From: an uncultured bacterium
GTDB lineage: Bacteria; Cyanobacteriota; Vampirovibrionia; Gastranaerophilales; Gastranaerophilaceae
Assembly (NCBI GenBank): GCA_902475545.1
Contig: CABRZP010000003.1
Location: forward strand, 72,422 to 136,421
Length of the DNA: 64,000 bases
Reading direction: 5' to 3'
Shown: in pieces, positions 5,306 through 34,352 of the stretch
Position numbering within the stretch: the stretch's first letter is position 1
How the letters are laid out: every line of letters begins with the position of its first letter
Made by a program: the position numbers and the translations under genes
Notes under the pieces: generated by a model
Databases searched by the model: none
Told to the model about the DNA's origin: nothing
Seen by the model: the letters and a program-made list of their open reading frames with translations, nothing else

Positions 5306-5740
5306 ATGAAACATTTAACAACACAACAAAAACGCTTTGTATCTGAATATATAAAGTCACTGGATGGTGAATATGCATTGATACAAGCAGGTTACAAAAC
5401 AAAAACACCTAAGAGCTTTTCCCAAGAATTACTTTCAAAAGATTATATTGTGAGAGAAATTAATGCACAGCTAAAGTATCAGATTAAATCTTTAAATGTA
5501 CAAAAGGGATATGTTATTCAAAAACTTTTGCAAATTGCTGAATTTTCTTTAGAGGAAGAAGATATTCTGGATAAAGAGGGTAATTACACAGGCAAGAAAA
5601 AACTTAGAGATTCTTCTGCAGGTTTAAAAGCTCTTGAAAGTCTTTGTAAATATTTGGGATTTTCTTCCGGAAATTATGATAACAACTATCGGGAAGCTAA
5701 AATTATTACTATTTCAAATCTTGATGATGAAAAAATTTAA
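5306..5740 (+). CDS. terS: Terminase small subunit (Terminase_2 / P27 family)
   Basis: LTTQQKRFVSEYIKSLDGEYALIQAGYKTKTPKSFSQELLSKDYIVREI is the classic N-terminal pattern of Terminase_2 small subunits. Confidence 0.8.
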   Translation: MKHLTTQQKRFVSEYIKSLDGEYALIQAGYKTKTPKSFSQELLSKDYIVREINAQLKYQIKSLNVQKGYVIQKLLQIAEFSLEEEDILDKEGNYTGKKKLRDSSAGLKALESLCKYLGFSSGNYDNNYREAKIITISNLDDEKI

Positions 5741-12900: not shown

Positions 12901-13588
12901 AATATATTTTAGACAATTCTTTTAATTTTTGTTCAGGTTTCAATTTTGTAAAATTAGGAGACAGTAGTGTATCTACATTAAAAAGTTCTTTTTTTTGTGC
13001 AGATTTTGTCGTTGGAGGTAAATTAACAGCTTTATATTCCTGTAATATACTCTTTTCTTTATCTGTTAACTCTGTTAGTTCTTTTCCTGAAATTTCTTGA
13101 ATGTAACTTTCAACATCACCTTCATACTTAATTGATTGAAGGTATTCTGTAGTTTTTTTGTTAAATTGACGAGTTGCAGGAGTTGCAGTTTCATCTACTT
13201 CAACATCATCAGTTGCCTCAGTGTCAGAAGGAATTTGTTCAGTTTCAACTTTTTGCTCTTGTTTTAACGAAGTTGTAGTACTAGTATTATCATTTTCTTT
13301 TGTTTGTTCTGCAAGTAAAATATAATTTTTTATATCTTTATCAGTCGCATTTTTTAAAGACGGATTATTTTGTCTTAACCATTCTATTTTTTCAGACTCA
13401 TTTTTCAAACCTTTATATTCTTTAGAGTTGATTGAAGCTAAAATATCCTTATCAGTTTCAGTTTTATCACCATTTTTATAGTTAAAATCAATTGGCTTTT
13501 TATTTGTACGTGCAGTAGTATCGGTAGATGTTGTCACCGGGGTTGATACTGTATTAGTTTGTTTTAGTTTATCTACATTTAAAGCCAT
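9935..13588 (-). CDS. Giant hypothetical protein (1217 aa; helical repeats plus an S/T/N/A-rich low-complexity linker)
   Basis: Long uninterrupted ORF. The low-complexity tract (SNSNSGSNAGSNVAANSNSANGTGTTS...) separates two large helical-looking regions. No catalytic motif recognised. Confidence 0.7.
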   Translation of the reverse strand: MALNVDKLKQTNTVSTPVTTSTDTTARTNKKPIDFNYKNGDKTETDKDILASINSKEYKGLKNESEKIEWLRQNNPSLKNATDKDIKNYILLAEQTKENDNTSTTTSLKQEQKVETEQIPSDTEATDDVEVDETATPATRQFNKKTTEYLQSIKYEGDVESYIQEISGKELTELTDKEKSILQEYKAVNLPPTTKSAQKKELFNVDTLLSPNFTKLKPEQKLKELSKIYLNANDSKYSELSKKDKERYEKDTVAILKQLINYNEKNKLNNFTSSLNAVAILQYAHATGKSIEDLTKLKKENINKIIDASVENIVNTTLEKIKNIPGDSNVEKVNKFADAILMGADSEYEKLSGKAKDEYRNSKIKEFFNNIGIPVETIAKNTHMGDEELFKNGLEIVSNLSKSGKLMQVLKAFQSEDPDRKLEAFGEVLKSLPDDMKKRYQTSIEIMQISIEVGISLNKENPTSYDMYKYLQNKQPLSAVEKNMLEMYSRLEQNGIDLKKDNIDLKLVNEVAAEMYGMSTEEYITTMINNIDFKTKEGRKQFVALIGSARAMGNAEQVELIETLLNGRKDLDPKIRDKYIKEFLNSETYTRTGFAAMIVHDNGAQAARATNRVNKQDPKMAEKMSRMMPACAKSDKAWNQFTEGIQHHKNLMTASAQGLNDLEDRTKANRFALSLANNSNIADSYKSQFTNELITDAARLGSEEQLRYGKTLSTVDNPAVTEGLAAASKSISDPSARQQYDSYVDNAMKNYPPEQQAAIRQARETGEISSSTLSQTNTSNGKPIESSNSNSGSNAGSNVAANSNSANGTGTTSTPSAANNTGSNNASQPSGASPASSKQSQASAVNQTAIYTTNQAAKNSVTGQTAASNNRTVYASASSSSTVSVSASKTHISNNPSAINDEASGSAEVTSKTLQSISPEETQKLKDEAQVLMDKIEEFMETQAESIQEYEEQQAQKLEDRFEDIIAELTSETEVYSDPNINKYENLPQELKEDVKEYFKDLYEKNGINAIYKALDGNKKDSFVEKLASTKSHEAIMAFANEHRSDKGIIRTLFKYSQNSELIRFMDSSDIIDLYMKGQIQDINLIKNNSEALAKIIELQLKGGEEPRNLKGLYALLTAEYQSDILANYPALAEEIPGTDAHYAKHIQSMKTAPSANPNPAIAQVKPDSGMITLENAIEGDETAHPYIYDKGDGHSVTLPFGRDYDRQKKKGHIYFA

Positions 13589-13674: not shown

Positions 13675-14403
13675 TTAATATATTTTAGTTTTCCTAACAT
13701 TTGGAGATGATGTTTCTACCATTTCTAATCCTGCTGAATTTTTGTATTTTGAATCACCTGCAATTAAATCAATTAGTAAATTCGCAGTATCATCATCAAT
13801 ACGTGTTTCATAAGTTACTTTACTATAGGTACCATCTTCATTTGGCGTAGAAGCTTCTATTGCCAGTCCACAAAAATCTTTATTGGGATCTCCTAAGTTA
13901 TGATAAATCAAAGATTTTACTTCTGGTGGCTGAACATAGTTAACTTTATGTTTATAACCATCTTGTATAAAATAAATATTTTCAACCTCATTATTATCAG
14001 CTTTTCCTAAACTTGCATATACCAGATTATATCTTTTTCCATTTGCAATAACCGGTAAAGACATTTTCATTCTCCTCGGTGCTAAATATGCAGAATAATA
14101 AGGCAATTTATGGAATACATCTTGAAAGCGTGGAGCAGTAGTGCTACTTGATGCTTGTCCTACAGAGGATACCATTTCTACCTTTGTTTCACTTTCTGTT
14201 GGTTGTGCCGCAGCTGGTTGACTTGCATTTATTGCACTTGTTGCTAATGCCAAAAGCAATGCTGCTGGAACGGTTACCATTCCACTTGCTTTTTGTGAGT
14301 TATAATTATTTTCTTTATTTTCTGATTCTTTATTTCCTCGACGTCCAAAATTTACTGCTGTGCTATTATTAAACCTAACACTACTAACCGGTAATACTGC
14401 CAT
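13675..14403 (-). CDS. Hypothetical membrane-anchored protein with an N-terminal VSSVRF motif
   Basis: 242 aa. N-terminus MAVLPVSSVRFNN, a charged linker, then TM VPAALLLALATSAINA. RBS GGAG. Confidence 0.65.
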   Translation of the reverse strand: MAVLPVSSVRFNNSTAVNFGRRGNKESENKENNYNSQKASGMVTVPAALLLALATSAINASQPAAAQPTESETKVEMVSSVGQASSSTTAPRFQDVFHKLPYYSAYLAPRRMKMSLPVIANGKRYNLVYASLGKADNNEVENIYFIQDGYKHKVNYVQPPEVKSLIYHNLGDPNKDFCGLAIEASTPNEDGTYSKVTYETRIDDDTANLLIDLIAGDSKYKNSAGLEMVETSSPNVRKTKIY

Positions 14404-14590: not shown

Positions 14591-15733
14591 TTAATCTTTA
14601 TCTGTATGTGAAATTATTCCTGATGAGGTATTGTTATCAATATCAATTACATGCTTGATTATTGTATGTGCCATTAAAAGCAAATAAGGATTTATTTCTG
14701 TAGTTTGTGACATGTTTATATTTGCAGAAGGTTTGTCAGTTTTTGGTTTAGTATTATTTATACTAAAAGATGTTACGGTATCTACTGTATAATGTTTTTT
14801 ATCACCATCAATTCTTAATTCTAATTCTGATTTTGGAAACTTTTCACTGCATTCAATTGCTATTTGCACAGAATTAGAGGTTTCTAAAAATATTGTTGCA
14901 ATTACTGTTCCATAATTTACCGTTGTAATTGTAACAGTTATTACGCTGTCACTTTCTTGATAACTATTTTCTTTTGTTTCAATTTCTAAATCAAATCCTA
15001 CTCCATCTTCAAGCGGCAGCCATGGAAGGTATAACATTAAAAGAAGTTTTAATGTTTTTTGCGGATTGTTTTCTGCGGCAACAGAAATACTTGCGTTAAT
15101 TAGCTTAGCCATTTCCTTCATTTGGGTTAAATCTGTAACTCCGGCTTTAGATGCTTCTGTCATATTCATTATGAGTTTTGTAAGAGCTTCTTTTCCGTTT
15201 TTTTGTAACAAAAGAGAGACATCCGCAAGATTTATCATTCCATTTGAAAGAATTTTTAAATCTTTGAGAGATGATTGAAGTTGTGATGCAAGTTGGACAT
15301 TGACCATCTCTTTTGATGTCGAAAATTCTAAACCCTGAAGTTGTGCAAGAATTTGTGCTTGCATTTGCGATAACGTGTTTCTTTGTGCTGCTAACTGGTT
15401 TGCAAACATCCGGTTAAATTGTGCCTGATTCATTCCTCGTTGAAGCATATAAATCAACTCATTCATGTTTTTAGGCACTTGCAATAAATCTTTTGCATAA
15501 ATTGCTCTGTCCATACTTTGGAGAGTATTTAATTGCAAATTTTGCTGAAGCTGTGAGGTTGTGTTACCTGATGCGATTTGTTGAGTATTATTTGCAATGA
15601 TTTCGGCAGATTTTGGAATTTCAACAGAAGATTGAGTTGGAGCGTTAATTTTAGCTTGGGCAGCCAACATTCTTTGATGGGCACTATTTTGCCCAAAATT
15701 ATTCAAAAATCTTCTGATATCTATGCCTGACAT
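14591..15733 (-). CDS. Hypothetical Q/N-rich protein (weak FliK-like C-terminal resemblance)
   Basis: 380 aa. Q-rich N-terminal half. LPLEDGVGFDLEIETKE...VITVTITTVNYGTVIATIFLE vaguely resembles the hook-length-control C-terminal fold pattern. Confidence 0.55.
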   Translation of the reverse strand: MSGIDIRRFLNNFGQNSAHQRMLAAQAKINAPTQSSVEIPKSAEIIANNTQQIASGNTTSQLQQNLQLNTLQSMDRAIYAKDLLQVPKNMNELIYMLQRGMNQAQFNRMFANQLAAQRNTLSQMQAQILAQLQGLEFSTSKEMVNVQLASQLQSSLKDLKILSNGMINLADVSLLLQKNGKEALTKLIMNMTEASKAGVTDLTQMKEMAKLINASISVAAENNPQKTLKLLLMLYLPWLPLEDGVGFDLEIETKENSYQESDSVITVTITTVNYGTVIATIFLETSNSVQIAIECSEKFPKSELELRIDGDKKHYTVDTVTSFSINNTKPKTDKPSANINMSQTTEINPYLLLMAHTIIKHVIDIDNNTSSGIISHTDKD

Positions 15734-23905: not shown

Positions 23906-24274
23906 TTAACTATTTAATTTTATTAATTCATTTCGAGTTTCTGCAATTTGTTTATTATAATATTCAAGCCAAGTTTCACCACTTTCTTCATCTTTTATTT
24001 CCATTTCGCATAATGCTCGAATACGTTTTGCATCAAGTTCATTAAGCTTCTCAATGATTTTTGAATTATGCTCAATTGCTTCCCGCTCCTTGACGATTTC
24101 AGCATACTTCGGATTTTCAACAATTTGTCCGCCTGAATAAACAAATTTATCCGGAGCTTCGCAGTAAGTTTGATACAATTCATTAGAAACTAAAATACTC
24201 ATAGTATCTTCATCAATGCACTTACATTCTCCTGCTCCATTTAGGATTCCATTATTAATAAAAATATATTTCAT
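23906..24274 (-). CDS. Tail-fibre-assembly / chaperone-like protein
   Basis: 122 aa, immediately downstream of the tail-fibre-like gene. The charged helical C-terminus (LDAKRIRALCE...WLEYYNKQIAETRNEL) fits the Tfa-like pattern. Contextual call. Confidence 0.4.
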   Translation of the reverse strand: MKYIFINNGILNGAGECKCIDEDTMSILVSNELYQTYCEAPDKFVYSGGQIVENPKYAEIVKEREAIEHNSKIIEKLNELDAKRIRALCEMEIKDEESGETWLEYYNKQIAETRNELIKLNS

Positions 24275-24298
24275 GATTTTCCCTTTCTTAAAATTTAA

Positions 24299-24898
24299 TT
24301 ATCTAACTTTTCTATAACCACAAAGCTTGAACGAACAAGAATTAGGATAACTGTTTGCATTAGTTTCGCTGCCTGTTCTTATTGTTAAACTCCTATCCGG
24401 TCCAATAGGAATTGTGCAATTACAAGAATCTATATCATTGTAATTATTTATTCTTGTAACAGCCCTACCTAAAAATACACCATTACATAATTGAGTAGTC
24501 GCTATAATGGCAAGACAATTATTTGATTCACTTCCTGTTCTTATTATTGCACCTATTATAATTTCATAAGTATTATCATCCTCTGGTAATAGTGAGGATA
24601 AATCAAAAGTTTTATTGTAATTTGCTGTAACCGTAACATTTTGAGCTATATAACTGTTTTTAGATTTCCAAACACCATCAAGTTCTGTTTTGTCAGCCTT
24701 ATTATCTAATGTTGATTGACCTGCTTCGTCTAAATTTGCAAGATTCGCATCCGCTTTAGTTGCAACACTTGAATTTAGAGTTTCAATATCAGAATTTATT
24801 TTGTCAAGCTCATCTATAACTGCAATAAAATTTGCATTTACTTCGTTTGCCTTTGCTTTTGTTCCAGGAACGAAAGAGTACGGAATGTTAAATGTCAT
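24299..24898 (-). CDS. Phage tail-fibre-like protein
   Basis: The N-terminus PYSFVPGTKAKANEVNANFIAVIDELDKIN is a motif I recall from many phage tail-fibre and collar proteins. It is followed by a coiled-coil heptad region and a Cys-rich C-terminal domain. Confidence 0.5.
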   Translation of the reverse strand: MTFNIPYSFVPGTKAKANEVNANFIAVIDELDKINSDIETLNSSVATKADANLANLDEAGQSTLDNKADKTELDGVWKSKNSYIAQNVTVTANYNKTFDLSSLLPEDDNTYEIIIGAIIRTGSESNNCLAIIATTQLCNGVFLGRAVTRINNYNDIDSCNCTIPIGPDRSLTIRTGSETNANSYPNSCSFKLCGYRKVR

Positions 24899-25062: not shown

Positions 25063-25443
25063 TTACGCAGTTGGAGCTGCCGGTTTTTTCCTACTAAACA
25101 ATTTTGTAAACGGACTAAGAATCGCTTCACCTGTTTTTGCAAGATAGTGACCAACTTTTTCCATTGTTTTTGCATTTTTCAGAGCTTCTGCATCTAATGT
25201 TTTGATTGCTTTTGGAAATACTTTAGGAAGTGCGGCTAATACACCTGCAACTACCACTAAACCAGCAACAAATTTTAAAAGTTTTTTTCCACCTGATTTT
25301 TTAGGTTGATCAGCAGGTGCAGTTGTTGCTGCTGTAGTTTGTTGAGCGTCACCACCGGAAAATCTACCCGGTCTTGATAATGGACTTGCACCAGTTGTTT
25401 CACCACAAAAACGTACACTTGAGATTGAATTGACCATTGACAT
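25063..25443 (-). CDS. Small membrane protein with an N-terminal ISSVRF motif
   Basis: 126 aa. MSMVNSISSVRFCG, an A/T/P/Q-rich linker, then TM LLKFVAGLVVVAGVLAAL. Visibly higher G+C than its neighbours. Confidence 0.6.
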   Translation of the reverse strand: MSMVNSISSVRFCGETTGASPLSRPGRFSGGDAQQTTAATTAPADQPKKSGGKKLLKFVAGLVVVAGVLAALPKVFPKAIKTLDAEALKNAKTMEKVGHYLAKTGEAILSPFTKLFSRKKPAAPTA

Positions 25444-25607
25444 GAGAAAACCTCCTTACACACTTTTTACAAAAATTTTAAAACATATAATAATTTAATT
25501 TTGACCCAATAAATTTATTTTGTGAATTATTGTTACAAAAATTTACATTTATTTTGGAATATTTTAATTCCATGTGTCATCTATATACTTGTGGAGGAGA
25601 GATTATA

Positions 25608-28600
25608 ATGCCAGAAAAACAACAATCACTTATATATATAGAACAACAAAACAAAACTGAAGCTGAATTTATGTCCAGAAGCTTTGTTGATAAAGCTACT
25701 AAGAATAGAGCGTACATAAATGCCCTAGGTGCAGAATTAGTTATAAAATATCTTGCACTTGAAGGAGTTGACGCTGCAAAGACTTTCAATCTTCATTCAA
25801 TTTCAAAGATTTTAGAAAAAGTTGATATCTCTGATATCAGACTACCAAATGTTCATATTGATGTGAGAGTTGTTTTTGATGAAAGTCAAATATTTATTCC
25901 AAAAAGCCATTTTGAATATGGTTTAGTACCTGATGTTTATTTTATTTTAAAACTTGCACAAGATTTTAAATATGTTGAATTTTTAGGATTTATTAAACCT
26001 GAGTTAATAAACAAAAGAAATGCAAATTCTGACTATTATTTTGTCGAAATGAGCGATTTAACTTCTCCTGATTCCGCAAAAGAATTTATTCAAAATTTTG
26101 AAGGCAACACCTCTGTTGGAATAACTCAAGATGAAATGCTCAAAGGTCGTGAATTATCTGTCTTGATGGCAGATCATAACATTTCCGATTCTGAAATGAA
26201 AGAATTATTCAGATTACTTTCAGCAAGCAGTGAATTAAGAGACAGTGTTCTAGAGTTTGACAATTTTGAAACTCTTTCAAATTCTGTTGGATCTATTTTG
26301 TTTGAACAAATGACCACTGCCGAATCTGTAGATGTTAGTTCCATTGAAGATTTCTTAGATAATCCGGAAGATGACTCTCAAAATTCTGAAGAAAATGAAC
26401 CTCAGCAAGATACAACACAAGATATAGAAACATCTAACGAAACAATTGAAAATATTACTACAGAAGATACATTAGATGTTGATTTTGATGATATTTTTTC
26501 AGATGAACCGATTTCAAGTGAAGAACCTGAAATGTTAGAAATGACAGAGCAGAGTACTGATTTACCGGCAGCCAACGAAAATGACGATGACAAATTAGGA
26601 CAAATTGTCGGAGACGTTGTTAAAAAATCATTAGGACTTGCAGCAGGAACCGCAGCAGCAGGAGCAATTGCAGGAGCCGCAGCTGAAGCCGCAGAAATAT
26701 CAGCTGCAGGAGCCATTTCGGAAGAAGCAATGAAACTGGCAGGTGTTGCCGGAGATGTTGTTTCTGACTTAATTAAACAAAATATTGATAATCAAGAAGA
26801 ACATTTAAGCAAACTTGATTTTGAAAATTTAGCTGTACGTTCAGAAAACATAGAGGATGAACTTGCAGGGTTTGAATTTGCAAATGATCCTATAAATACT
26901 ACAGATGAATACGCTGCACCTCAAGATTTATCATCTCTTGAACAAGTTCCAACATCTGATTTTACCGAAACAAATGAAATTCAACATGATGTTGTAGATT
27001 TGTCAGAAATGGCCGAAGTTGAAAATGAAAACTTTAAAGAAAATATTGAAGATTTATCTGATTTACATAATATGTCAACAATGGATTCAACAGATCCTAT
27101 AAATATAGACATTGAAACTAATGATGATAGCAATGAACATTTATCAGAATTAGATTTTCAAAATTTAGAAACAATAGATAATGAACAAAACCAAAATACA
27201 GAATCTAAAGATAATTCTGAAGAAGAAAATCTTCTTGATTTTAATTCAACAGATGATATTTTCGGAGAAGAAGATTTAAACATACTTGATACAGATTTAA
27301 ACATGGATATTGTACAAGATGATTTTGTTGATTTAAACTCAGAAGATCCAATTATTGATAACAACTCAAATGTTTCTGAAGAACCTATTACTGAAGAAGA
27401 AGAAAGCGTTGTTGAAAATACAATTGATAACGAATCTGAATCAATCTCTGTTTCTGACGATATGGAATTATCAGAAGAGATAGATATGTTGGAAGACAAT
27501 TTAATAATCGACGATTTTAACGAGGATGCATCTTTAATTGAAGCTCCATTAGAAGAAGAAATCTCGGCACCTGAAAATGAGGAAATTCAAGAAAACACTG
27601 TTTCTGTTGAAAATAGTATTATTGAAGAAAACAATGAAACAAACGACTTACTTATCGATGAAGCTTTAGAACCTGAAGCCTCAGAAGATGAACTTTTTGC
27701 AAATATAGATATGGAAGAAGATTTAGTTCTTGATGATGTTATTAGTGAAGATACTGAAATGGATGACATAGAAGCTAACAACCAAGAACAAGAAAATTCA
27801 ATACCAGAAAACAATACAATAATAGAAGATGAAGTAGTTTCCCTTGATAATATTGAACCTGTGGACAATTATGAAACTACAAACATTGATATTAATGATT
27901 CTAATATTGAAGAAAATAATCTTACAAATTTAGAAGAAATAGCTGAAGTAAATAATTCAGATGAAGATTTTTCAGCATCAGAAGACCTTTCTGCACAAGA
28001 ATGGTTAGAAGATTCAGTTGATAACATTGAAGCAGCGGCTTTAGGCACAATTTCAGATTCTGATAATGTTGAAAATTCTGAAATTGAAACAGGCGACAAT
28101 ATTGAAATTGACAATCAACCTGAAGATATTATTACAGAGCCTGAAGTTATTCAACCGTACGAATTTGCAGTTGCAGAAAACTCTATTGTTATAAGCGATC
28201 TTACATTTAAGGTTGGAGAAATTCCAATCGATATCAACAATCCGAATGTTCAAACCTTTGATGGTCCTGAACAATTAGGTGATTTATATAATGAAAATGT
28301 TCCTGGCGGTTCATTACTCCAAAATCCGGGAACTTTAGGCTCTGCTGCTGCATCCAGAAACAAGAAAAGTCCTATCGGAGGAATTCTTGGCGGTATTGTA
28401 GTTCTGATTATTCTCGGAGTTGTTGGTTTTTATGTGGCAAAAATGCTTAAACCTGCTGTAGAAGAAGTTCCCGAACCAATTACAGATGGAAACACTTCTG
28501 TAACACCTGAAGTAGGATCAAATGATCCGAATGCATTGAATGTAAAACCTGAAAATGTTGTAAATATGGAAAATAATACTCCTGCAGTTCAACCAAATGT

Positions 28601-29051
28601 CACACCTGCTGAACCCGCACAAAAGGTTCAACAGACAACACCTCTAGCAAACGCAGCTAAAACACCTGCTACAGTTCAAAAGAAACCAAAACCAATCCCT
28701 TCAACATCTTTCTTAAATGTTAGAAAATTGAGTTGGGAAGTACCTGATTATATTTCATATAATCAACAATTTAAACAATACTTCCAATCTGCAGGTAAAA
28801 GTTTGAAATTATCTTTGACTACAGACTTACTTTCTGCATCTGAATACGTATACTCAGATCAAGTTAGAGTAAGCATTTTGTATGACAAAGACGGTACTTT
28901 CAAAGATGCTAAGATATTATTATCAAGCGGTTCTGCTCAGGTAGATAAAATTGTGTTACAAACTGTTAACCAAACCTTAAAGGTGCTAAAAGCTCCTAAT
29001 AGCGTGGGTAACGACGAAAGTACAACGGTCATACTTAAAATTTATTTTTAA
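25608..29051 (+). CDS. Giant bitopic protein: DUF1822-like N-terminal domain, ~600-aa D/E/N-rich acidic region, one TM helix, Pro-rich linker, TonB-C-like domain
   Basis: GGAGGAG RBS before the ATG at 25608 (the ORF track opens at 25530). TM IGGILGGIVVLIILGVVGFYVA (about 28372-28440). The C-terminal VSILYDKDGTFKDAKILLSSGSAQVDKIVLQTVNQ matches the TonB_C pattern. Confidence 0.75.
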   Translation: MPEKQQSLIYIEQQNKTEAEFMSRSFVDKATKNRAYINALGAELVIKYLALEGVDAAKTFNLHSISKILEKVDISDIRLPNVHIDVRVVFDESQIFIPKSHFEYGLVPDVYFILKLAQDFKYVEFLGFIKPELINKRNANSDYYFVEMSDLTSPDSAKEFIQNFEGNTSVGITQDEMLKGRELSVLMADHNISDSEMKELFRLLSASSELRDSVLEFDNFETLSNSVGSILFEQMTTAESVDVSSIEDFLDNPEDDSQNSEENEPQQDTTQDIETSNETIENITTEDTLDVDFDDIFSDEPISSEEPEMLEMTEQSTDLPAANENDDDKLGQIVGDVVKKSLGLAAGTAAAGAIAGAAAEAAEISAAGAISEEAMKLAGVAGDVVSDLIKQNIDNQEEHLSKLDFENLAVRSENIEDELAGFEFANDPINTTDEYAAPQDLSSLEQVPTSDFTETNEIQHDVVDLSEMAEVENENFKENIEDLSDLHNMSTMDSTDPINIDIETNDDSNEHLSELDFQNLETIDNEQNQNTESKDNSEEENLLDFNSTDDIFGEEDLNILDTDLNMDIVQDDFVDLNSEDPIIDNNSNVSEEPITEEEESVVENTIDNESESISVSDDMELSEEIDMLEDNLIIDDFNEDASLIEAPLEEEISAPENEEIQENTVSVENSIIEENNETNDLLIDEALEPEASEDELFANIDMEEDLVLDDVISEDTEMDDIEANNQEQENSIPENNTIIEDEVVSLDNIEPVDNYETTNIDINDSNIEENNLTNLEEIAEVNNSDEDFSASEDLSAQEWLEDSVDNIEAAALGTISDSDNVENSEIETGDNIEIDNQPEDIITEPEVIQPYEFAVAENSIVISDLTFKVGEIPIDINNPNVQTFDGPEQLGDLYNENVPGGSLLQNPGTLGSAAASRNKKSPIGGILGGIVVLIILGVVGFYVAKMLKPAVEEVPEPITDGNTSVTPEVGSNDPNALNVKPENVVNMENNTPAVQPNVTPAEPAQKVQQTTPLANAAKTPATVQKKPKPIPSTSFLNVRKLSWEVPDYISYNQQFKQYFQSAGKSLKLSLTTDLLSASEYVYSDQVRVSILYDKDGTFKDAKILLSSGSAQVDKIVLQTVNQTLKVLKAPNSVGNDESTTVILKIYF

Positions 29052-29089: not shown

Positions 29090-29653
29090 GTGGAATTAAC
29101 ACAAGACAAGATAGAGCTGATAAGTAAAATCATAAAAAACGACCGGAAGTATTCAAACAATGAAGATTTGTATGATGATTTCTTTAATGAAACATGCAAA
29201 CGTTCTGTTGGAATACTTGAGGCTGTTGATTCTGAGGCTACTCTTGAAATTTACTTAAAACGTGTTGCAACTACAGCAATTATTAATGTATTGAAAGATT
29301 CCGGAAGATTAAGACGTTCCAGAACCGGTTACATGTCAACAAAAGAAGTATCTTATGATAATACTAAAAATGATGTTGATTATTCAGATGTTGTTATTAA
29401 TTATTCAAATGTGACACTTCCTGAAACCCCTGAAGATATTGTTATCCAAAGAGATTTTCTACAATTTGTTGCTGACACGGTTAAGAAAATTAATGATCAA
29501 GAACCTGATAAAGATTATTTACATATTTATATTTTACGTTATGATAAGGGCATGACTCAGAAAGAAATATCTGATGAAATTGGTATCTCCCAGTCTGAAG
29601 TTTCCAAAAGACTTTTCAGATTGATGGAAAAAGTTAAAAATGTCATTGAGTAA
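29090..29653 (+). CDS. Divergent sigma-70/ECF-like protein (region 4 HTH clear, region 2 degenerate)
   Basis: YILRYDKGMTQKEISDEIGISQSEVSKRLFRLMEKVKN matches sigma region 4. YLKRVATTAIINVLKD resembles region 2.3/2.4. GTG start with a GGAG RBS. Confidence 0.65.
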   Translation: MELTQDKIELISKIIKNDRKYSNNEDLYDDFFNETCKRSVGILEAVDSEATLEIYLKRVATTAIINVLKDSGRLRRSRTGYMSTKEVSYDNTKNDVDYSDVVINYSNVTLPETPEDIVIQRDFLQFVADTVKKINDQEPDKDYLHIYILRYDKGMTQKEISDEIGISQSEVSKRLFRLMEKVKNVIE

Positions 29654-29665
29654 AAAGTTTAAGAT

Positions 29666-32623
29666 ATGAAATGTCCCGTATGTGAAAAAAATATTCCGGA
29701 AACAAGTTTGAGATGTCCGTATTGTAAAACTCGAACAGGTTTATTGTGTTCTCATTGTAATACAGTTAACCCTCTCGGCACTCTTTTATGCAAAAATTGC
29801 GGACATGAACTGCTTAAAATTTGCCAACATTGCGGTAGTGTGAACTTCCCCAATGCCGTAAAATGCAGAAAATGCGATTCCCTTTTAAATCCAAAAACAG
29901 AAGAAAAAATATCAGGTATAAATCCATTAGAATATAACCCTGATTTATACAGCCAAAAGCAAGCGTTTGATATTTTATCTGACGGATTAAATTCAAAAAC
30001 GCAAAAAATATTTTCTATTACAGGAGACAAAGGAATTGGTAAAACTTTTCTACTAAAACAAGTCATAAAAAGTTTTAATAAAGATAAATTCCGCTGGGGT
30101 ATCGGAGAATGCACCCCGCTTACGCAATTAACTCCCGGTGGTGTAATTCAGGCAATGCTGTTGGATTTATTCTGCCTGCCCAATTTCTGTATTAAAAATG
30201 AGGAATTTGAAACTAATGCAATTAAATTTTTCACTAATGAATTTAAATTTTTAAAACAAGATGAAATTTCTGACTTTTTAAACTTTTTATATAATTTTAA
30301 AGATGGAAACTATGAAGATATCATTATTAATAAAAAACGAACTTTTAAAATTTTAAATAAGATATTTACAGCGTTTTCAGACACCGGAAATTTTGTTTTT
30401 GTAATTGATAATTTTGATTTTATAGATGGTTTTTCAATTGAATTTCTAACAAATTTTATGCAGCATGACGAAGTTTGGAAAAACCTCAAGTTTATTGCTA
30501 TATATAACAGACATAAGCCAATAACTAATTTTTTCGGATTTGAAGATAAAGATATAAATGCGTATGTTGATATTAATCTTGCTCCGTTAACAGTTAAAGA
30601 ACTTGAAAATAACATGAAGTTAACGGGAGATTCAGGTACCTATGTAACAGAAAGAGAAAAAGAAGTTATTTTTGCTAAAAGCCATGGGAACCCTGCATTT
30701 GTAGAACAGGCTATAAGCTATTCTTTTGATTGTCAAATTTCAGATAAAGCATTTTTGATGCCTAATACTTTTTTTGAATTGATTAAAAATCGTTTAGACA
30801 CTTTGAAAAAAAATAATAATCAGGCTTACAAACTTCTTTGCGGAGCATCTGTTATTGGTAATAAATTAAATTTAGCATTATTAAAAGAAATTTTTGGATA
30901 TAAAGGACAAGAGTTTAACGATATAATGTCCTATCTTGTGAAATCAAATTTTGTTAGACCTTATAATGAAATATACTATGAATTCAATAATATTTTATTA
31001 TGGGAAACAATATTAAAAAGTCTAACCCGAAATTCGGCATTTGAAGATATAAATATAAAAATAGGAAAAGCATTAAGCGTATTTACACTAAATACAAATC
31101 CGACACTGGCTATGATTGCACACAATTTAAAAGAAACTCGAATGGCTTTTGATATTTGGACAAAGACAACACGTCTTGCCTCTTACGTCGGAGATATAAA
31201 TTTATATGTTATTTCGCAAAAACAGTGTCTTGCATTACTAAATGAATTCAATGAGAATGAAACACTGAACATTCGCTATAATATCAGTGAACGACTCGGG
31301 AAATTACTTGCTGAATACGATGCAGAAGAAGCTTTGGAATTTTTACCTGATGCTATAGCCAATGCAAAAGCTGACAATAACGAAGTAAAGGAAATTGAAC
31401 TGTTAGGGTATTTATCTCTCTGCTGCAAAAAAACAGGTAACTATTTGGGCAATGTTGAATGCGTTGATAATGTTTTAAAAAAGATGAAACCATCTCAAGA
31501 GATTGAATCAGCTCTGGTTAAAACTTCAAAATTAGAATCACTTTTAAATATCGGAAACTGCGGAGAAGTTATTAATCTTATTGATAATGACATCATGCCT
31601 GTTTTAAGTAATTATCTTGCTAAACCTAAATTAAACAAGACAATACCTCTATTATTTTTGTATGATACATGGATCAGAATTCATTTAACACTGGCTCATG
31701 CTTTAGCCCTGCAAGGTAATAACCGCTCATTTGAAATATTAAACAAATTATTTAATATTATTGAAAAACATAAAGTTAATGATTACCAGCTTCATTGTAA
31801 AGCTAAACTTGTCTTGGCATTAGCAAATACTATGCAGGGGAATTTTGAAACCTCGAACAATCTTTTAGAAGATATTGAACGAAATTATAAAGACAAAATC
31901 ATGGATGGAGAAACTATTTCCCGAATGAATTTAATTTCTATAATCAATAGATTTATGACTAAACAATATGACCAGCTTCAGGAAATATTGTTTGATGCTG
32001 TAACATTTGCAAATAATACGGGGGATAATTTTACAAAAAATATTTTGAAAGTATTGCTTGGTAAAATGTTTAAAGATGAACAAAAAGCAAAGCATGCAAT
32101 AGAAATATATAATGAACAGGTCACATACTTTGCAAAAGAGAAAATGGCATTAGGAGCGTTGCTGTCATGGTTATTAATTGCTGAAGCAGTAATGATAACT
32201 GAAACACCGAAAAATACTATTGAAATTGCAAATAATGCTCTTGAAATTGCACAAAATCCGAGAATTAATAACACATTTTTTATTGTGCATTTAAAAATGC
32301 TTTTAGCTCAAGCCTATATGGAATTATCAGACTATGAAACCGCAAAAATAAATCTTGAATCGGCAGTTATACTTGCAAAAAAATATGCAATGAACGATAC
32401 CCTTTCAAGACTTTATATGCTATTTGGAAAATATTACAGAGACTTAGGGACTGTACAATCTAACAATCAAATTGATTACTTAAAAGGAGCATTAAAAATG
32501 TTTGAAAATGCGATGTCTCTTGTTCTAAAAAATACACATAATAAATATATTCATGACCAAATAGATAAAGAGCAGAGACTTTTGCTTTCATATTGTGATG
32601 TTAATGGTTTTAAAATAGTTTAA
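29666..32623 (+). CDS. STAND-type P-loop NTPase with N-terminal multiple zinc ribbons and a C-terminal TPR-like array
   Basis: Four CxxC pairs in the first 75 aa. Walker A ITGDKGIGKTFLLK (about 30022-30045). Walker B-like FVFVIDNFDFID. Long helical-repeat C-terminus. Confidence 0.75.
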   Translation: MKCPVCEKNIPETSLRCPYCKTRTGLLCSHCNTVNPLGTLLCKNCGHELLKICQHCGSVNFPNAVKCRKCDSLLNPKTEEKISGINPLEYNPDLYSQKQAFDILSDGLNSKTQKIFSITGDKGIGKTFLLKQVIKSFNKDKFRWGIGECTPLTQLTPGGVIQAMLLDLFCLPNFCIKNEEFETNAIKFFTNEFKFLKQDEISDFLNFLYNFKDGNYEDIIINKKRTFKILNKIFTAFSDTGNFVFVIDNFDFIDGFSIEFLTNFMQHDEVWKNLKFIAIYNRHKPITNFFGFEDKDINAYVDINLAPLTVKELENNMKLTGDSGTYVTEREKEVIFAKSHGNPAFVEQAISYSFDCQISDKAFLMPNTFFELIKNRLDTLKKNNNQAYKLLCGASVIGNKLNLALLKEIFGYKGQEFNDIMSYLVKSNFVRPYNEIYYEFNNILLWETILKSLTRNSAFEDINIKIGKALSVFTLNTNPTLAMIAHNLKETRMAFDIWTKTTRLASYVGDINLYVISQKQCLALLNEFNENETLNIRYNISERLGKLLAEYDAEEALEFLPDAIANAKADNNEVKEIELLGYLSLCCKKTGNYLGNVECVDNVLKKMKPSQEIESALVKTSKLESLLNIGNCGEVINLIDNDIMPVLSNYLAKPKLNKTIPLLFLYDTWIRIHLTLAHALALQGNNRSFEILNKLFNIIEKHKVNDYQLHCKAKLVLALANTMQGNFETSNNLLEDIERNYKDKIMDGETISRMNLISIINRFMTKQYDQLQEILFDAVTFANNTGDNFTKNILKVLLGKMFKDEQKAKHAIEIYNEQVTYFAKEKMALGALLSWLLIAEAVMITETPKNTIEIANNALEIAQNPRINNTFFIVHLKMLLAQAYMELSDYETAKINLESAVILAKKYAMNDTLSRLYMLFGKYYRDLGTVQSNNQIDYLKGALKMFENAMSLVLKNTHNKYIHDQIDKEQRLLLSYCDVNGFKIV

Positions 32624-32634
32624 ATCAAAAAAAA

Positions 32635-32657
32635 GGTGTTTGAATTTACCAAACACC
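32635..32657. terminator. Bidirectional terminator hairpin
   Basis: GGTGTTTG-AATTTAC-CAAACACC with an A-run upstream, between convergent genes. Confidence 0.55.
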
Positions 32658-32684: not shown

Positions 32685-34352
32685 TTAGATTTCAAACAAA
32701 CTGTGAAGTCTGCTTCTAATATCATCTTCATCCAGTTCGCCTGTTAATTTATTCAAATCAATTGCCATCTGATAATAATTAGCGGCATCATTTGTAAAGC
32801 CCATTTGCTGACTTGCTCTTCCTGCATTAAAATATGCAAGAGTATAATTCGGATTTAGTGCAATAGCTTCTTCGAAATATTCAAGAGCTTCTTCTGCATC
32901 TGCCAAACCATCCAGATATAATATTCCAAGATTATTTTGGGAATATTCATTCTCAGGATTCAATTCTATAGCTTTATGGTAAGCAACTAAAGCTTCTTCC
33001 AAATAGTCTTTTTCCCACAGTGCAATTCCGACTTTTGAATAAGCTCTGGCTTCATCCGGATTCAAGGTAATTGCGTCGCAATATGCCCGTATTGCTTTAT
33101 CTAAATCGTAATCTGCCATATATATATCACCAAGAGCAATATGCAAATCGTAATTTTTCGGGTCTAATATAATACCTGCTTGGTATGTCGAAACCGCAGC
33201 TTCCATGTTGCCTTTATTTTCGGCATAAATTGAACCTAAAGCCTGACATACAATTGATGTCCATTCTGCATCAGGATTTACTGAAATTGCTTTCTGATAA
33301 TGTTCAATTGCATCATCATACAATTCAGCTTTTGCATAAGCATAACCGAGAGAATTATTAAAGAACGGATTTTCCGGATCTTTTTCTACTGCAAGCTTAA
33401 ATGCACTTAACGAATTCAATTTATCTTCTTTTGATAGATATAAATGTCCTAATTCATAATAAATTTGAGCAGTATCAATATCAAATTCTAATAATTTTTC
33501 ATAACAATCAATTGCTTCTTCCGTATTTTCAGGAAAATATGTTTGCAAAATTGTAGCCAATTTTACAAGCACTTCACGATTAATAGGATTTGCCTCTAAT
33601 ACTTTTCTATAGCATTCTGCAGTTTTTTCTAAATCTTTATTTTTTAATGCCAAATCACCAATTTTATTGTAATAATATTCACTATGTGTAGTTTTGACTA
33701 TAGCATCATTGTATAATTTTTCTGCAGCATCATACATCTTACAGTTTTCATAGAATCTTCCAACTGTATTATATGAAAAGATTGAAACATCATTTGACAT
33801 GTTTTTATAGAACATTTTGATGGCAGCTCTATCCCATGCCAACATAACACTTCCTGTTATGAAATAATACAAAAATCCTGCATAGTCTTTAAATGAACTG
33901 CTTTGCGTATTGATTTTCTGTAATATTGACTGCGACAAAATCATTCTTGGTCTGCCTGAAGTCAAAGGACTCATCTTTATTGCTGACTTAAATTCTTTTT
34001 CAGCAGACGAATAATCTTGAGCTAATTGCATGAAATAACCTGTATAAAGGTGAGCATCCTTATTGTGAGGAGACAAGGAAATTGCAGTCTTACATTGCTC
34101 TATTGCAGTATTAACACTAATCTGCCCCTGTTCCCACATCAATGTAGCTAACCTGTAATAAGTTTCAGGTATTGTAGGGTCATACTTAACCGTATCTACA
34201 TAGTGTTCAATTGCCTCTTGTAAATCGTTATTTCTCTGACCAATTAAATATTTCTCATGAGCAAGTCTTGCTTTTTCAAGAGAATCTATAGCCTTTTCCT
34301 TATTTTCTATATTGTTTGTGCCAATCATTGGCATTAAAACTTGTTCTGACAT
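32685..34352 (-). CDS. TPR repeat protein
   Basis: 555 aa with many 34-residue repeats of the A..Y..AI.L.P pattern (for example AIEHYQKAISVNPDAEW, AYHKAIELNPENEY, YFEEAIALNPNYTLAYFN). Confidence 0.85.
   Translation of the reverse strand: MSEQVLMPMIGTNNIENKEKAIDSLEKARLAHEKYLIGQRNNDLQEAIEHYVDTVKYDPTIPETYYRLATLMWEQGQISVNTAIEQCKTAISLSPHNKDAHLYTGYFMQLAQDYSSAEKEFKSAIKMSPLTSGRPRMILSQSILQKINTQSSSFKDYAGFLYYFITGSVMLAWDRAAIKMFYKNMSNDVSIFSYNTVGRFYENCKMYDAAEKLYNDAIVKTTHSEYYYNKIGDLALKNKDLEKTAECYRKVLEANPINREVLVKLATILQTYFPENTEEAIDCYEKLLEFDIDTAQIYYELGHLYLSKEDKLNSLSAFKLAVEKDPENPFFNNSLGYAYAKAELYDDAIEHYQKAISVNPDAEWTSIVCQALGSIYAENKGNMEAAVSTYQAGIILDPKNYDLHIALGDIYMADYDLDKAIRAYCDAITLNPDEARAYSKVGIALWEKDYLEEALVAYHKAIELNPENEYSQNNLGILYLDGLADAEEALEYFEEAIALNPNYTLAYFNAGRASQQMGFTNDAANYYQMAIDLNKLTGELDEDDIRSRLHSLFEI

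Follow-up and report, generated by a model that had tools for sequence, protein, structure and literature searches.

A three-gene operon in gut Melainabacteria

The window, which is the whole 64-kb stretch of DNA that we analyzed, contains a gene for a giant membrane protein of gut Melainabacteria (Table 1). From the N terminus, this protein has a DUF1822-type head, an acidic spacer, one transmembrane (TM) helix, a proline-rich linker, and a TonB-like periplasmic end. An initial annotation had already described these parts, including a spacer of ~600 amino acids, in a single open reading frame (ORF); we verified its coordinates, and the three peptides that it quoted lie at amino acids 108, 923, and 1090. 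The gene starts with an ATG, which is preceded by a ribosome-binding site (GGAGGAGAG). (An automated ORF listing opens the frame earlier, at the TTG at position 25530.) This is a real ORF and not a chance one, because an uninterrupted ORF with the same architecture is found in 85 of 97 related loci, with lengths of 754–1313 amino acids, and the architecture is also present in 138 of the 148 best cluster representatives that we examined. All 97 of the related loci are from metagenome-assembled genomes of Gastranaerophilales/Melainabacteria or from gut and rumen metagenomes. The locus lies among housekeeping genes, and it is found throughout the order.

Table 1. Features of the locus. Positions are those of the window; aa, amino acids of the giant protein unless a protein length is given.
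Feature	Position	Strand	Description and basis
Divergent small single-TM protein, 126 aa	25063..25443	-	pI 10.2; conserved N-terminal motif
Upstream regulatory block	25532..25584	+	GTTACAAAAATTTACA, N8, TTGGAATATTTT, N8, GTGTCATCTAT
Giant gene (whole)	25608..29051	+	encodes a bitopic protein of 1147 aa; the last codon of the range is the stop; ORF and ribosome-binding site
Cytoplasmic head, aa 1-240	25608..26327	+	alpha/beta core (aa ~60-150), then four helices; DUF1822-like in part
Polyacidic spacer, aa 241-850	26328..28157	+	cytoplasmic, probably disordered; composition, low conservation, gappy alignment
Island A, aa 326-450	26583..26957	+	within the spacer; ortholog alignment
Island B, aa ~505-550	27120..27257	+	HLSxLDFxN ... 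EENLxDF; ortholog alignment
Juxtamembrane cytoplasmic segment, aa 851-921	28158..28370	+	conserved; ENSxVISDxxFxVGEIPIDINNP ... GPEQLxxLY ... LLQxPGRLG
TM helix (single), aa 922-944	28371..28439	+	Gly-rich, without His; hydropathy
Periplasmic linker, aa 945-1030	28440..28697	+	Pro/Thr/Asn/Val-rich; 14 Pro in 86 aa
C-terminal domain, TonB/TolA type, aa 1031-1147	28698..29048	+	periplasmic; TonB_C/TonB_2 matches, AF2, Foldseek
Sigma factor, ECF-type, 187 aa	29090..29653	+	TIGR02937 67 bits (cut-off 42.9); Sigma70_r4 matched
Third operon gene, 985 aa	29666..32623	+	double zinc ribbon, P-loop STAND-type NTPase (AAA_16), TPR-like repeats
Terminator-like hairpin	32635..32657	.	between the convergent STAND gene and TPR gene

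The sigma-like gene that had been reported directly downstream of the giant gene does encode a sigma factor, and it is followed by a gene for a STAND-type protein (Pfam matches: DZR, AAA_16, KAP_NTPase, and TPR_12). The gaps between these genes are 38 nt (giant to sigma) and 12 nt (sigma to STAND). We found no terminator-like sites between the three genes, and the hairpin beyond the third gene is likely the end of the operon. Considering the loci that extend far enough past the giant gene, the sigma gene is directly 3' of it in 16 of 16 loci from genomes and 70 of 70 from metagenomes, and the STAND gene is present in all 16 and all 66 of the loci that reach that far. A lack of conserved linkage to the sigma gene had been set beforehand as a refutation of the initial annotation; instead, the linkage is kept in every one of these loci, and it is maintained down to N-domain identities of 41–45%. 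The gene order is also preserved in a frameshifted locus (L017), while the outer flanks of the three-gene block vary between loci. The giant gene thus opens a conserved operon that is found throughout gut Gastranaerophilales, with the synteny demonstrated within this one bacterial order.

The regulatory block upstream of the giant gene is nearly invariant among 77 distinct upstream regions, even with 45% protein identity. Across 1.3 Mb, each locus has one copy and no copies were seen outside the loci; in the window, it is a single site. Its GGAAT-N15-GTC pair resembles an ECF-type promoter, and we treat it as a putative one; that the adjacent sigma factor might read it is, at the level of sequence, only a resemblance. 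On the other side of the block, the divergent small gene is present in 91 of 97 loci, and it starts 133–244 nt from the giant gene. The small protein had no family match in Pfam or NCBIfam. As a conserved membrane protein, it could be an alternative candidate for the anti-sigma factor. Neither this protein nor the STAND NTPase had been noted in the initial annotation, and either of them could hold the anti-sigma role or alter the logic of the system.

Domains of the giant protein

When we scanned the head (amino acids 1–241) by itself against Pfam, with E values of up to 10 allowed, the sole match was to DUF1822 (PF08852; 29.3 bits, E = 5.8e-7, cut-off 25); anti-sigma families (zf-HC2, RskA, or similar) were absent. 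The match spans amino acids 9–155 and positions 1–154 of the 370 in the profile, so the full-length profile is not covered, and the helical part of the head (amino acids 154–237) is unmatched. A Pfam scan of the whole protein did not report DUF1822, while a precomputed match to PF08852 is present in 22 of 28 close homologs. The family assignment of the initial annotation stands for the isolated head, marginally, and it extends to just the N-terminal 40% of the profile.

The AF2 model of the head (pLDDT 84.7) has an alpha/beta core and helices. In 223 members, 34 positions of the head are nearly invariant, including D73, D76, D85, R87, K99, H101, and D109, and the many invariant charged residues suggest a catalytic or ligand site. 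Foldseek against BFVD matched the head to ~24 proteins of phages and giant viruses (probability of at least 0.82, over ~170–200 columns). The best of these matches had E = 3.4e-5; two are named "Restriction endonuclease" and most are unnamed. A search of PDB structures gave nothing better than E = 0.79, with TM-scores of ~0.2, and the sub-threshold matches were mostly HincII, Sau3AI-C, AspBHI, Eco15I-N, and PA endonuclease. Based on these matches, the head may be a nuclease-fold (restriction-endonuclease-like) domain. D85 and K99 are invariant, but the residues preceding K99 are I-P, with no acidic residue two positions before it, so no canonical (D/E)xK triad can be placed.

The spacer (~610 amino acids) contains 193 aspartates and glutamates and 9 lysines and arginines, for a net charge of -184. 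In a set of 156 homologs, the spacer can be as short as 118 or as long as 841 amino acids, and its acidity is retained. We looked for tandem repeats in the spacer and found none. The acidic region is not featureless: amino acids 326–480, ~505–550, and 851–921 are conserved among orthologs. Island A has an Ala/Gly/Thr-rich stretch, followed by the motif AIKLAGVxGDxVxDLIxKNxExQ..L.K(I/L)D(Y/F). The motif HLSxLDFxNL is present twice in the spacer, with its LDF core starting at amino acids 403 and 515. The mean column conservation of the juxtamembrane segment across 17 orthologs is 0.60–0.77 (0.69–0.77 for amino acids 851–900). Neither island A nor the juxtamembrane segment matched Pfam. Because the sigma factor is acidic (pI 5.0), the polyanionic tail cannot retain it through charge.

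The bitopic topology with the N terminus inside, as had been proposed, is supported by hydropathy and by the charges that flank the TM helix (in 156 homologs, net +2.3 on the N-terminal side and about 0 on the C-terminal side). In 138 homologs, 189–261 amino acids separate the TM helix from the C terminus, and such a constrained length is expected of something that needs to span the periplasm. There is also a weak match to NF033761 (GltJ) over the TM helix and the linker (21.3 bits versus a cut-off of 450).

No other part of the protein is as conserved as the C-terminal domain. By itself, this domain matches TonB_C (PF03544) at 27.1 bits, above the cut-off of 24.6, and TonB_2 at 24.4 bits, above the cut-off of 22. 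Within the whole protein, the TonB_C score is 22.5 bits, and TIGR01352 scores 22.8 bits, under its cut-off of 27.1. For the AF2 model of this domain (pLDDT 86.3), Foldseek found the TonB C-terminal domain of H. pylori (E = 4.7e-4) and domain III of TolA (E = 6e-3 to 3e-2), with TM-scores of 0.4–0.5. A profile search of PDB sequences found no TonB. The TonB_C signature described in the initial annotation is supported by the isolated domain and by the fold, although it is marginal by sequence and falls below the cut-off in a scan of the whole protein.

Proposed role of the giant protein

The gene for the giant protein always shares its operon with genes for a sigma factor and a STAND ATPase, so the protein is probably an envelope-anchored sigma-factor regulator, putatively of a new kind. 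A trans-envelope signaling or anti-sigma-like role had been suggested in the initial annotation. More specifically, we tentatively propose a role as an envelope-docked tether, or as an anti-sigma-like regulator, of the co-transcribed sigma factor. We infer the binding steps, the signal, and the autoregulation as follows. The TonB/TolA-type periplasmic domain, on its length-constrained Pro-rich linker, would contact a partner in the outer membrane or the cell wall. The DUF1822-type head, possibly together with the islands in the tail, would retain the sigma factor, or else the STAND protein, at the membrane, and the polyanionic tail of variable length would be a flexible spacer. Altered contact with the envelope, or activation of the STAND NTPase, would release the sigma factor, which would then transcribe its own operon from the conserved GGAAT-N15-GTC promoter.

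Several observations support this proposal. With its N-terminal domain in the cytoplasm and its C-terminal domain in the periplasm, on either side of one TM helix, the giant protein has a layout that resembles that of a single-pass anti-sigma factor. The close spacing of the genes, with a hairpin after the third gene and no terminator-like site before it, is also in its favor, as are the conservation of gene order despite differing outer flanks and low N-domain identity, the nearly invariant ECF-like block, and the combination of a constrained periplasmic reach with a variable cytoplasmic spacer. Independent support comes from the literature, in which DUF1822 genes co-occur with ECF sigma genes in cyanobacteria (PMC8195603), and GltJ is a precedent for the layout (PMC11135422). 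On the other hand, the head has no match to anti-sigma families, its predicted fold is an alpha/beta core with helices instead of the helical fold of anti-sigma factors, and its invariant charged residues point to a catalytic or ligand site. The acidity of the sigma factor, which speaks against retention by the tail through charge, is a further objection. The similarity of the head to phage proteins, two of them named as restriction endonucleases, and the conservation of a second membrane protein (the divergent protein of 126 amino acids) also count against a sigma-factor regulator.

A broader view, which we consider doubtful when all of its parts are taken together, is that DUF1822 represents an unrecognized class of ECF-sigma regulators that is common to Cyanobacteria and Melainabacteria, with the version from Gastranaerophilales fused via a polyanionic tether to a TonB-type domain. 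The head may then be a repurposed domain with the restriction-endonuclease fold. If this is true, then a single polypeptide would sense an outer-membrane partner directly, such as by an exposed TonB box, and would relay the signal to the sigma factor together with the STAND NTPase. In effect, the giant protein would merge the roles of TonB and FecR.

Alternative explanations

We also considered that the giant protein might be a landmark or scaffold, similar to HubP/FimV in mirror image, which recruits cytoplasmic clients to a site on the membrane. The sigma factor and the STAND protein would be merely co-expressed with it or would be among its clients, and the sigma factor would not be sequestered. 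HubP/FimV proteins combine a LysM domain in the periplasm and a TM region with a large acidic domain in the cytoplasm that leads to a TPR domain at the end of the chain (PMC12918733), and Kaur et al. (PMC8195603) refer to DUF1822 as a TPR protein. A spacer that varies in length but stays acidic, with islands that are typical of short binding motifs, would suit a scaffold, but "DF" dipeptides are just ~2-fold enriched in it. Furthermore, Pfam and NCBIfam scans of the giant protein found neither a LysM domain nor the FimV motif, and the domain order is opposite. Also, HubP/FimV genes are not known to be bound so strictly to a sigma gene in one operon, or to have an ECF-like promoter, as the giant gene does. 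A scaffold seems unlikely to us. We are more skeptical that the head is a PD-(D/E)xK-like effector or a nucleic-acid-binding domain and that the cluster is a conflict or stress system based on the STAND NTPase. Until the STAND sensor is triggered, the tethering to the membrane and the polyanionic tail, which is DNA-like, would suppress the activity of the head; the sigma factor would be the transcriptional arm. The BFVD matches, the predominance of endonucleases in the sub-threshold PDB list, and the invariant charged residues of the head are consistent with this idea, and Kaur et al. placed pairs of DUF1822 and ECF sigma factors in caspase/STAND systems, in the context of apoptosis-like responses or immunity (PMC8195603). 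But most of the BFVD matches are to unnamed proteins, the PDB matches are poor, the canonical triad is missing, and PADLOC and PHROGs gave nothing for either the head or the STAND protein. The housekeeping surroundings and the order-wide presence are also unlike a mobile defense island.

Finally, the giant protein could be a true energy-transducing paralog of TonB/TolA, with an accessory cytoplasmic extension. Its partner would be an ExbBD/TolQR motor with genes at another site, and it would transmit the energy to an outer-membrane transporter or serve the integrity of the envelope. A TolC-like OEP encoded at 43455-44855 shows that the organism is diderm, the C-terminal domain passes two TonB cut-offs on its own and has a predicted fold that matches both TonB and TolA, and the length of the Pro-rich linker is similar to that of TonB. 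However, the TM anchors of TonB and TolA have a conserved Ser/His motif (SxxxH) that couples them to ExbBD, and none of the 156 homologs of the giant protein has a histidine in the core of the TM helix. TIGR01352 scores below its cut-off, and the linkage of the giant gene is invariably to a sigma factor and never to transport genes. Among ~50 non-nested ORFs of at least 110 amino acids in the window, we searched 46 and found no members of the ExbB/ExbD or TonB-dependent receptor families. Also, TonB proteins generally lack a cytoplasmic domain (PMC8262864), while the giant protein has 921 residues ahead of its TM helix. Given the missing histidine, the long cytoplasmic part, and the absence of ExbB/ExbD from the 46 ORFs, we reject canonical TonB identity. 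This agrees with the initial annotation, which had noted the departure from TonB and the lack of exbB/exbD nearby. We view even a divergent energy-transducing paralog as highly improbable.

Comparison with known systems

The giant protein shares the C-terminal fold (as predicted), the SSG...(L/V)D signature, the Pro-rich linker, and the single N-in TM helix of canonical TonB/TolA, but its TonB sequence scores are marginal and no ExbBD/TolQR genes are nearby. Like HubP/FimV (PMC12918733), it is bitopic, with a periplasmic domain of an envelope-binding type and a cytoplasmic region that is acidic, very long, and capped by an interaction domain. It differs in its reversed order, in having a TonB_C-like domain in place of LysM, and in lacking the C-terminal motif of FimV, and there is no homology.

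GltJ and GltG, of the Agl-Glt gliding machine of Myxococcus, are TonB-like proteins with a cytoplasmic extension, and GltJ is a precedent for a TonB_C protein with a large, partner-recruiting cytoplasmic N terminus. The cytosolic N-terminal region of GltJ has 377 amino acids and contains folded modules as well as a disordered, partner-binding linker; a single TM helix comes next, and a Pro-rich linker then carries the TonB_C domain in the periplasm (PMC11135422). The giant protein lacks the ZnR and GYF domains, its spacer is far longer and is polyanionic, and its gene is linked to a sigma factor, with no AglRQS/ExbBD-like motor genes near it.

Kaur, Iyer, Burroughs and Aravind (2021; PMC8195603) described cyanobacterial DUF1822 genes as neighbors of ECF sigma genes, beside genes for EACC2-caspase sensor proteins; a STAND NTPase is one form that the variable part of these sensors can take. 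Similarly, the giant protein passes the cut-off for PF08852, and its gene has an ECF sigma gene and a gene for a large sensor protein next to it. (We compared the loci by their published description.) In contrast to those systems, the giant protein matches just the first 154 of the 370 profile positions, its DUF1822-type module continues in the same chain into the acidic tether, the TM helix, and the TonB_C-like domain, and Pfam finds no caspase or EACC2 domain in its STAND partner.

As in single-pass ECF anti-sigma factors and FecR-type sigma regulators (such as RseA, RsiW, and FecR), the giant protein has a cytoplasmic N-terminal part, one N-in TM helix, and a C-terminal domain in the periplasm. 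Its gene is also in an operon with that of an ECF-type sigma factor, and the ECF-like promoter ahead of this operon looks autoregulatory. Unlike those regulators, the giant protein has no anti-sigma signature; instead, its head is a DUF1822-type alpha/beta and helical domain of 240 amino acids, separated from the membrane by the polyanionic spacer, and its periplasmic domain is of the TonB/TolA type. Also, the giant gene is upstream of the sigma gene, and the STAND NTPase is a third constant partner. The giant protein does have two features of class I ECF anti-sigma factors: it is predicted to cross the membrane once, with its N terminus inside, and its gene is co-transcribed with that of an ECF sigma factor.

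A giant bitopic protein and its relatives

The giant gene is one open reading frame of 1,147 codons whose ATG start has GGAGGAGAG on its 5' side (an automatic ORF listing begins the frame earlier, at TTG 25530). The three peptides cited in the initial annotation all lie in its product, at residues 108, 923, and 1090. We derived the residue layout from composition and hydropathy. A second transmembrane (TM) helix in the Ala/Gly-rich residues 335–385 was considered and rejected: hydropathy peaks at 1.42, glutamate is present, and 137 of 138 homologues have a single TM helix.

Features of the giant protein (residue numbers) and of the window (nucleotide positions)
Feature	Position	Strand	Remarks
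Head	aa 1-240		mixed composition
Extremely acidic region	aa 241-850		193 D+E vs 9 K+R, net charge -184
Juxtamembrane segment	aa 851-921		ordinary composition
TM helix	aa 922-944		sole strongly hydrophobic segment
Pro-rich linker	aa 945-1030		14 Pro per 86 residues
C-terminal domain	aa 1031-1147		slightly basic
Giant gene	25608-29051	+
Sigma factor gene	29090-29653	+	187 aa
STAND gene	29666-32623	+	985 aa
Small basic protein	25063-25443	-	single TM
TTACA half-site pair	25532-25547
All-TPR protein	32685-34352	-	555 aa
orf199 and following orf122	23906-24898	-
Amidase_2	459-986	+
Small terminase	5306-5740	+
Portal or head-tail connector	6669-8345	+	weak match
Large terminase	8378-9667	+
Second giant ORF	9935-13588	-	1217 aa
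Neighboring ORF	13675-14403
Neighboring ORF	14591-15733

Scanning one genome per species yielded 16 loci, each with a complete orthologue (935–1313 aa) of the same layout. These are from MAGs titled Gastranaerophilales, Melainabacteria, "Cyanobacteria bacterium" or "uncultured bacterium," plus one archaeon-labelled bin. Gut and rumen metagenome assemblies contributed 80 more loci, in which N-terminal domain identity is 45–68%. A reading frame that spans the head and the TonB-like domain without interruption is present in 85 of the 97 loci (754–1313 aa); the others are at contig ends or in low-coverage assemblies with frameshifts. When we compared a profile of the head to 1.84 billion cluster representatives with HMMER, we found 767 proteins at E ≤ 1e-3 (340 at E ≤ 1e-30). 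Among the best 150 of the 767, 148 were newly retrieved, and 138 of those have one TM helix and the C-terminal domain.

Locus L006 (CAVAPR010000002.1) and the records P0003 and P0259 are labelled "Candidatus Methanomethylophilaceae archaeon" or "Muribaculaceae bacterium" despite a Melainabacteria-type locus; they are probably from mis-binned or mislabelled MAG contigs. In another related locus, L017 (GCA_036704275.1, JBAJGS010019546.1), the whole region is in many short ORFs and the giant gene is in at least four pieces. The genes for SecDF and trigger factor are broken up as well, a pattern that points to an assembly rich in frameshifts and not to pseudogenes.

Domains and topology

A Pfam scan of the entire giant protein gave one match, to TonB_C, which was below threshold (22.5 bits versus 24.6), and did not report DUF1822. 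When scanned as separate pieces, both ends pass their curated thresholds. The head scores 29.3 bits against DUF1822 (PF08852; threshold 25, E = 5.8e-7), in a match confined to positions 1–154 of the 370 in the profile. The C-terminal domain scores 27.1 against TonB_C (cut-off 24.6) and 24.4 against TonB_2 (cut-off 22), but NCBIfam TIGR01352 scores 22.8, under its cut-off of 27.1. The two families that the initial annotation had named are recovered from the isolated pieces, but not from the whole protein, and for DUF1822 only in part.

AlphaFold2 modelled both ends with confidence. In the predicted head (pLDDT 84.7), four helices come after an alpha/beta core, and its comparison to solved structures gave nothing better than E = 0.79. 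The best matches for the model of the C-terminal domain (pLDDT 86.3) are the C-terminal domain of Helicobacter pylori TonB (E = 4.7e-4) and TolA domain III structures (E = 6e-3 to 3e-2); further TonB C-terminal domains also match. The TM-scores of these matches are modest, at 0.4–0.5. As modelled, the domain appears to belong to the TonB/TolA C-terminal fold as a divergent member, and the matches do not separate TonB from TolA. Searches of PDB sequences with the whole giant protein or with profiles of the head or the C-terminal domain found no useful match. (SjdR of Anabaena was also considered as a cyanobacterial TonB-like analogue and set aside, being short and having no TonB_C domain.)

Across 156 homologues, the 15 residues on the N-terminal side of the TM helix have a mean net charge of +2.3 and the 15 on its C-terminal side about 0, which predicts that the N-terminus is cytoplasmic and the C-terminus is outside. 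A TolC-like OEP gene in the window shows the organism to be diderm. In 138 homologues, the TM helix and the C-terminus are 189–261 residues apart, so the periplasmic reach is constrained.

On the cytoplasmic side, the spacer is between 118 and 841 residues long in the 156 homologues, while its composition is maintained (about 31% D+E and under 3% K+R). Its charge is therefore constrained and its length is not. Such a polyanionic tether, probably disordered, is an unusual natural spacer for bacteria. The spacer alignment also shows a conserved island at residues 326–450 (an Ala/Gly/Thr-rich stretch and then a helix-like motif) and two copies of the motif HLSxLDFxN, and the roughly 70 juxtamembrane residues are strongly conserved. 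None of these islands matched a Pfam family, and Tandem Repeats Finder found no significant repeat in the acidic region. An array of short "DF" motifs seemed possible, but their enrichment relative to shuffled sequences is only about two-fold, which weakens the idea.

A conserved operon with an ECF-type sigma factor

The sigma factor gene begins 38 nt 3' of the giant gene, and its product belongs to the sigma-70 family and has the size of an ECF sigma factor. It scores 67 bits against TIGR02937 (cut-off 42.9); region 4 is clear and region 2 is very divergent. Its profile matched PDB sequences only in region 4 of SigF, and the matches listed by a word-indexed protein search are all close orthologues. 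The STAND gene starts 12 nt after the sigma factor gene and encodes a double zinc ribbon, an AAA_16/STAND-type P-loop NTPase, and TPR-like repeats. Terminator-like sites are absent between these genes, and a hairpin lies just beyond the STAND gene.

The linkage to the sigma factor gene that was noted in the initial annotation is deeply conserved: the giant-sigma-STAND order is kept in 16 of 16 genome loci and in 70 of 70 metagenome loci that extend beyond the C-terminal domain. The order is also present in frameshifted L017, which is 44% identical and has different flanks. The outer flanks vary among loci (tyrS, tail-fibre-like genes, hemN-like genes, or secDF). A fourth partner, the divergently transcribed small basic protein, is present in 91 of 97 loci and has a conserved N-terminal motif (VSxVxFxG...PGKF). 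In L043–L050 and L072, the small protein has C-terminal Lys/Glu/Pro/Gly-rich repeats (such as EGENKAEGDKKPEENKAP, in several copies), which are not in the window's copy.

The 130 nt 5' of the giant gene hold GTTACAAAAATTTACA, N8, TTGGAATATTTT, N8-9, and gTGTCATC. This block is near-invariant even at 45% protein identity and occurs once per locus; a regulon search of the 1.3 Mb of fetched loci found no further copies. It contains a GGAAT-N15-GTC pair, which we take to resemble the −35 and −10 elements of ECF-type promoters, and we infer that the block is read by the operon's own sigma factor. A sigma-70 promoter does not fit the spacing of the conserved blocks, and a scan for sigma-70 promoters was uninformative in this AT-rich DNA (55 sites versus 40 expected). 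The two TTACA half-sites (GTTACAAAAATTTACA), which lie exactly 10 bp apart and 5' of the GGAAT/GTC pair, do not vary among loci and may serve a further regulator as an operator.

Other genes of the window

The all-TPR gene is convergent to the operon. Its only full-length orthologue among the 16 genome loci is in L001 (the closest relative), and tblastn found matches in 6 of 80 metagenome loci, so we place it outside the conserved cluster. Just upstream of the cluster, orf199 (by its N-terminus, FVPGTKAKANEVNANF) and orf122, which follows it, look like a phage tail-fibre/tail-fibre-assembly pair; their matches to PHROG "tail" families are weak (E ~ 0.01). Homologues of orf199 and orf122 are just upstream of the cluster in 11 and 10 of the 16 genome loci, and L080 has a 391-aa version. 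At the left end of the window, the phage-like genes, which perhaps reach to about 15700, suggest a prophage or a remnant. The second giant ORF has a Ser/Thr/Asn/Ala-rich low-complexity middle (residues ~780–900) and no match in Pfam or significant match in PHROGs (best E = 0.32), and no family was found for its two neighbors.

Proposed role and alternatives

We tentatively propose that the giant protein is an envelope-docked tether or an anti-sigma-like regulator of the co-transcribed sigma factor; the initial annotation had likewise suggested an anti-sigma-like role. The TonB/TolA-type domain would touch a partner in the outer membrane or the wall via the periplasm-spanning linker, and the DUF1822 head or the conserved islands would keep either the sigma factor or the STAND NTPase bound to the membrane. 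When signalled by the envelope or the STAND NTPase, the protein would set the sigma factor free, and the sigma factor would then transcribe from the conserved promoter of its own operon. Our data establish the architecture, a topology prediction, the operon with its deeply conserved linkage, and the conserved promoter block, and we infer every interaction, the signal, and the autoregulation in this scheme. The head has no anti-sigma domain signature and its predicted fold is unlike known anti-sigma domains, which count against an anti-sigma role; the small protein, as a second membrane protein, could be the true anti-sigma factor instead. We reject the idea that the acidic tail captures the sigma factor electrostatically, as the sigma factor is itself acidic.

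The giant protein might instead be a scaffold like HubP/FimV, with the sigma factor not necessarily among its clients. HubP/FimV landmark proteins combine a LysM domain in the periplasm with a TM region, a long stretch of acidic cytoplasmic sequence, and a TPR domain at the end (PMC12918733), and to that extent they are architectural analogues; we consider this role rather unlikely. It is less likely still that the head is a nuclease-fold effector or sensor within a STAND-based system. Foldseek against predicted viral structures gave about 24 matches to the head with probabilities of at least 0.82 (best E = 3.4e-5, over ~170–200 columns), two of which are named restriction endonuclease; restriction enzymes are abundant among its sub-threshold PDB matches; and D73, D76, D85, R87, K99, H101, and D109 are invariant across 223 members. 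However, the canonical (D/E)xK motif could not be placed in the head, and PADLOC and PHROGs gave no meaningful match for the head, the STAND protein, or the small protein. Most improbable is a true energy-transducing paralogue of TonB or TolA, as the C-terminal fold might suggest. TonB and TolA are coupled to ExbBD and TolQR by a Ser/His motif in the TM helix, but the TM core lacks histidine in 156 of 156 homologues. As the initial annotation had remarked, no exbB or exbD is nearby: Pfam scans covered 46 of the ~50 non-nested window ORFs with a length of 110 aa or more and detected neither ExbB/ExbD nor TonB-dependent receptor families. And TonB proteins generally lack a cytoplasmic domain (PMC8262864), whereas the giant protein has 921 residues ahead of its TM helix.

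Relation to known systems

In public databases, members of the family are named "hypothetical" or "DUF1822 family protein." No function is known for DUF1822, which is scarcely mentioned in the literature that we searched; there we found no description of the DUF1822-TonB fusion or its operon and nothing on TonB or sigma factor systems of Gastranaerophilales or Melainabacteria. The parts are known (the bitopic sigma-linked layout, the TonB-type domain, the DUF1822 module, and the acidic tether), but the combination is undescribed so far. ECF signaling is often termed the third pillar of bacterial signal transduction, and if DUF1822 proves to be a partner of sigma factors, the giant protein would represent a new class of regulator for it, in gut relatives of cyanobacteria from humans and animals. 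Its main value is that it puts the function of DUF1822 within reach of testing: a lineage-wide fusion of DUF1822, a membrane anchor, and a TonB-type domain in an ECF sigma operon gives the testable hypothesis that DUF1822 is a partner of sigma factors.

GltJ of Myxococcus is an architectural analogue: its 377-aa cytosolic ZnR-linker-GYF region recruits partners and is followed by a TM helix, a Pro-rich linker, and TonB_C (PMC11135422). If DUF1822 is a partner of sigma factors, the giant protein would be the second case, after GltJ, of a TonB-type domain that does not energize transport. In the sister lineage, the cyanobacteria, DUF1822 genes neighbour ECF sigma genes and genes for caspase proteins, in which the variable C-terminal part is in some cases a STAND NTPase (PMC8195603). 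[quoted passage not shown] The link between DUF1822 and sigma factors outside Melainabacteria rests on this literature, as neither the head nor the sigma factor had a tblastn match in 72,556 plasmids. Compared to the cyanobacterial DUF1822/ECF sigma/caspase systems, the variant in the window has no detectable caspase, and its DUF1822 module is tethered to the membrane.
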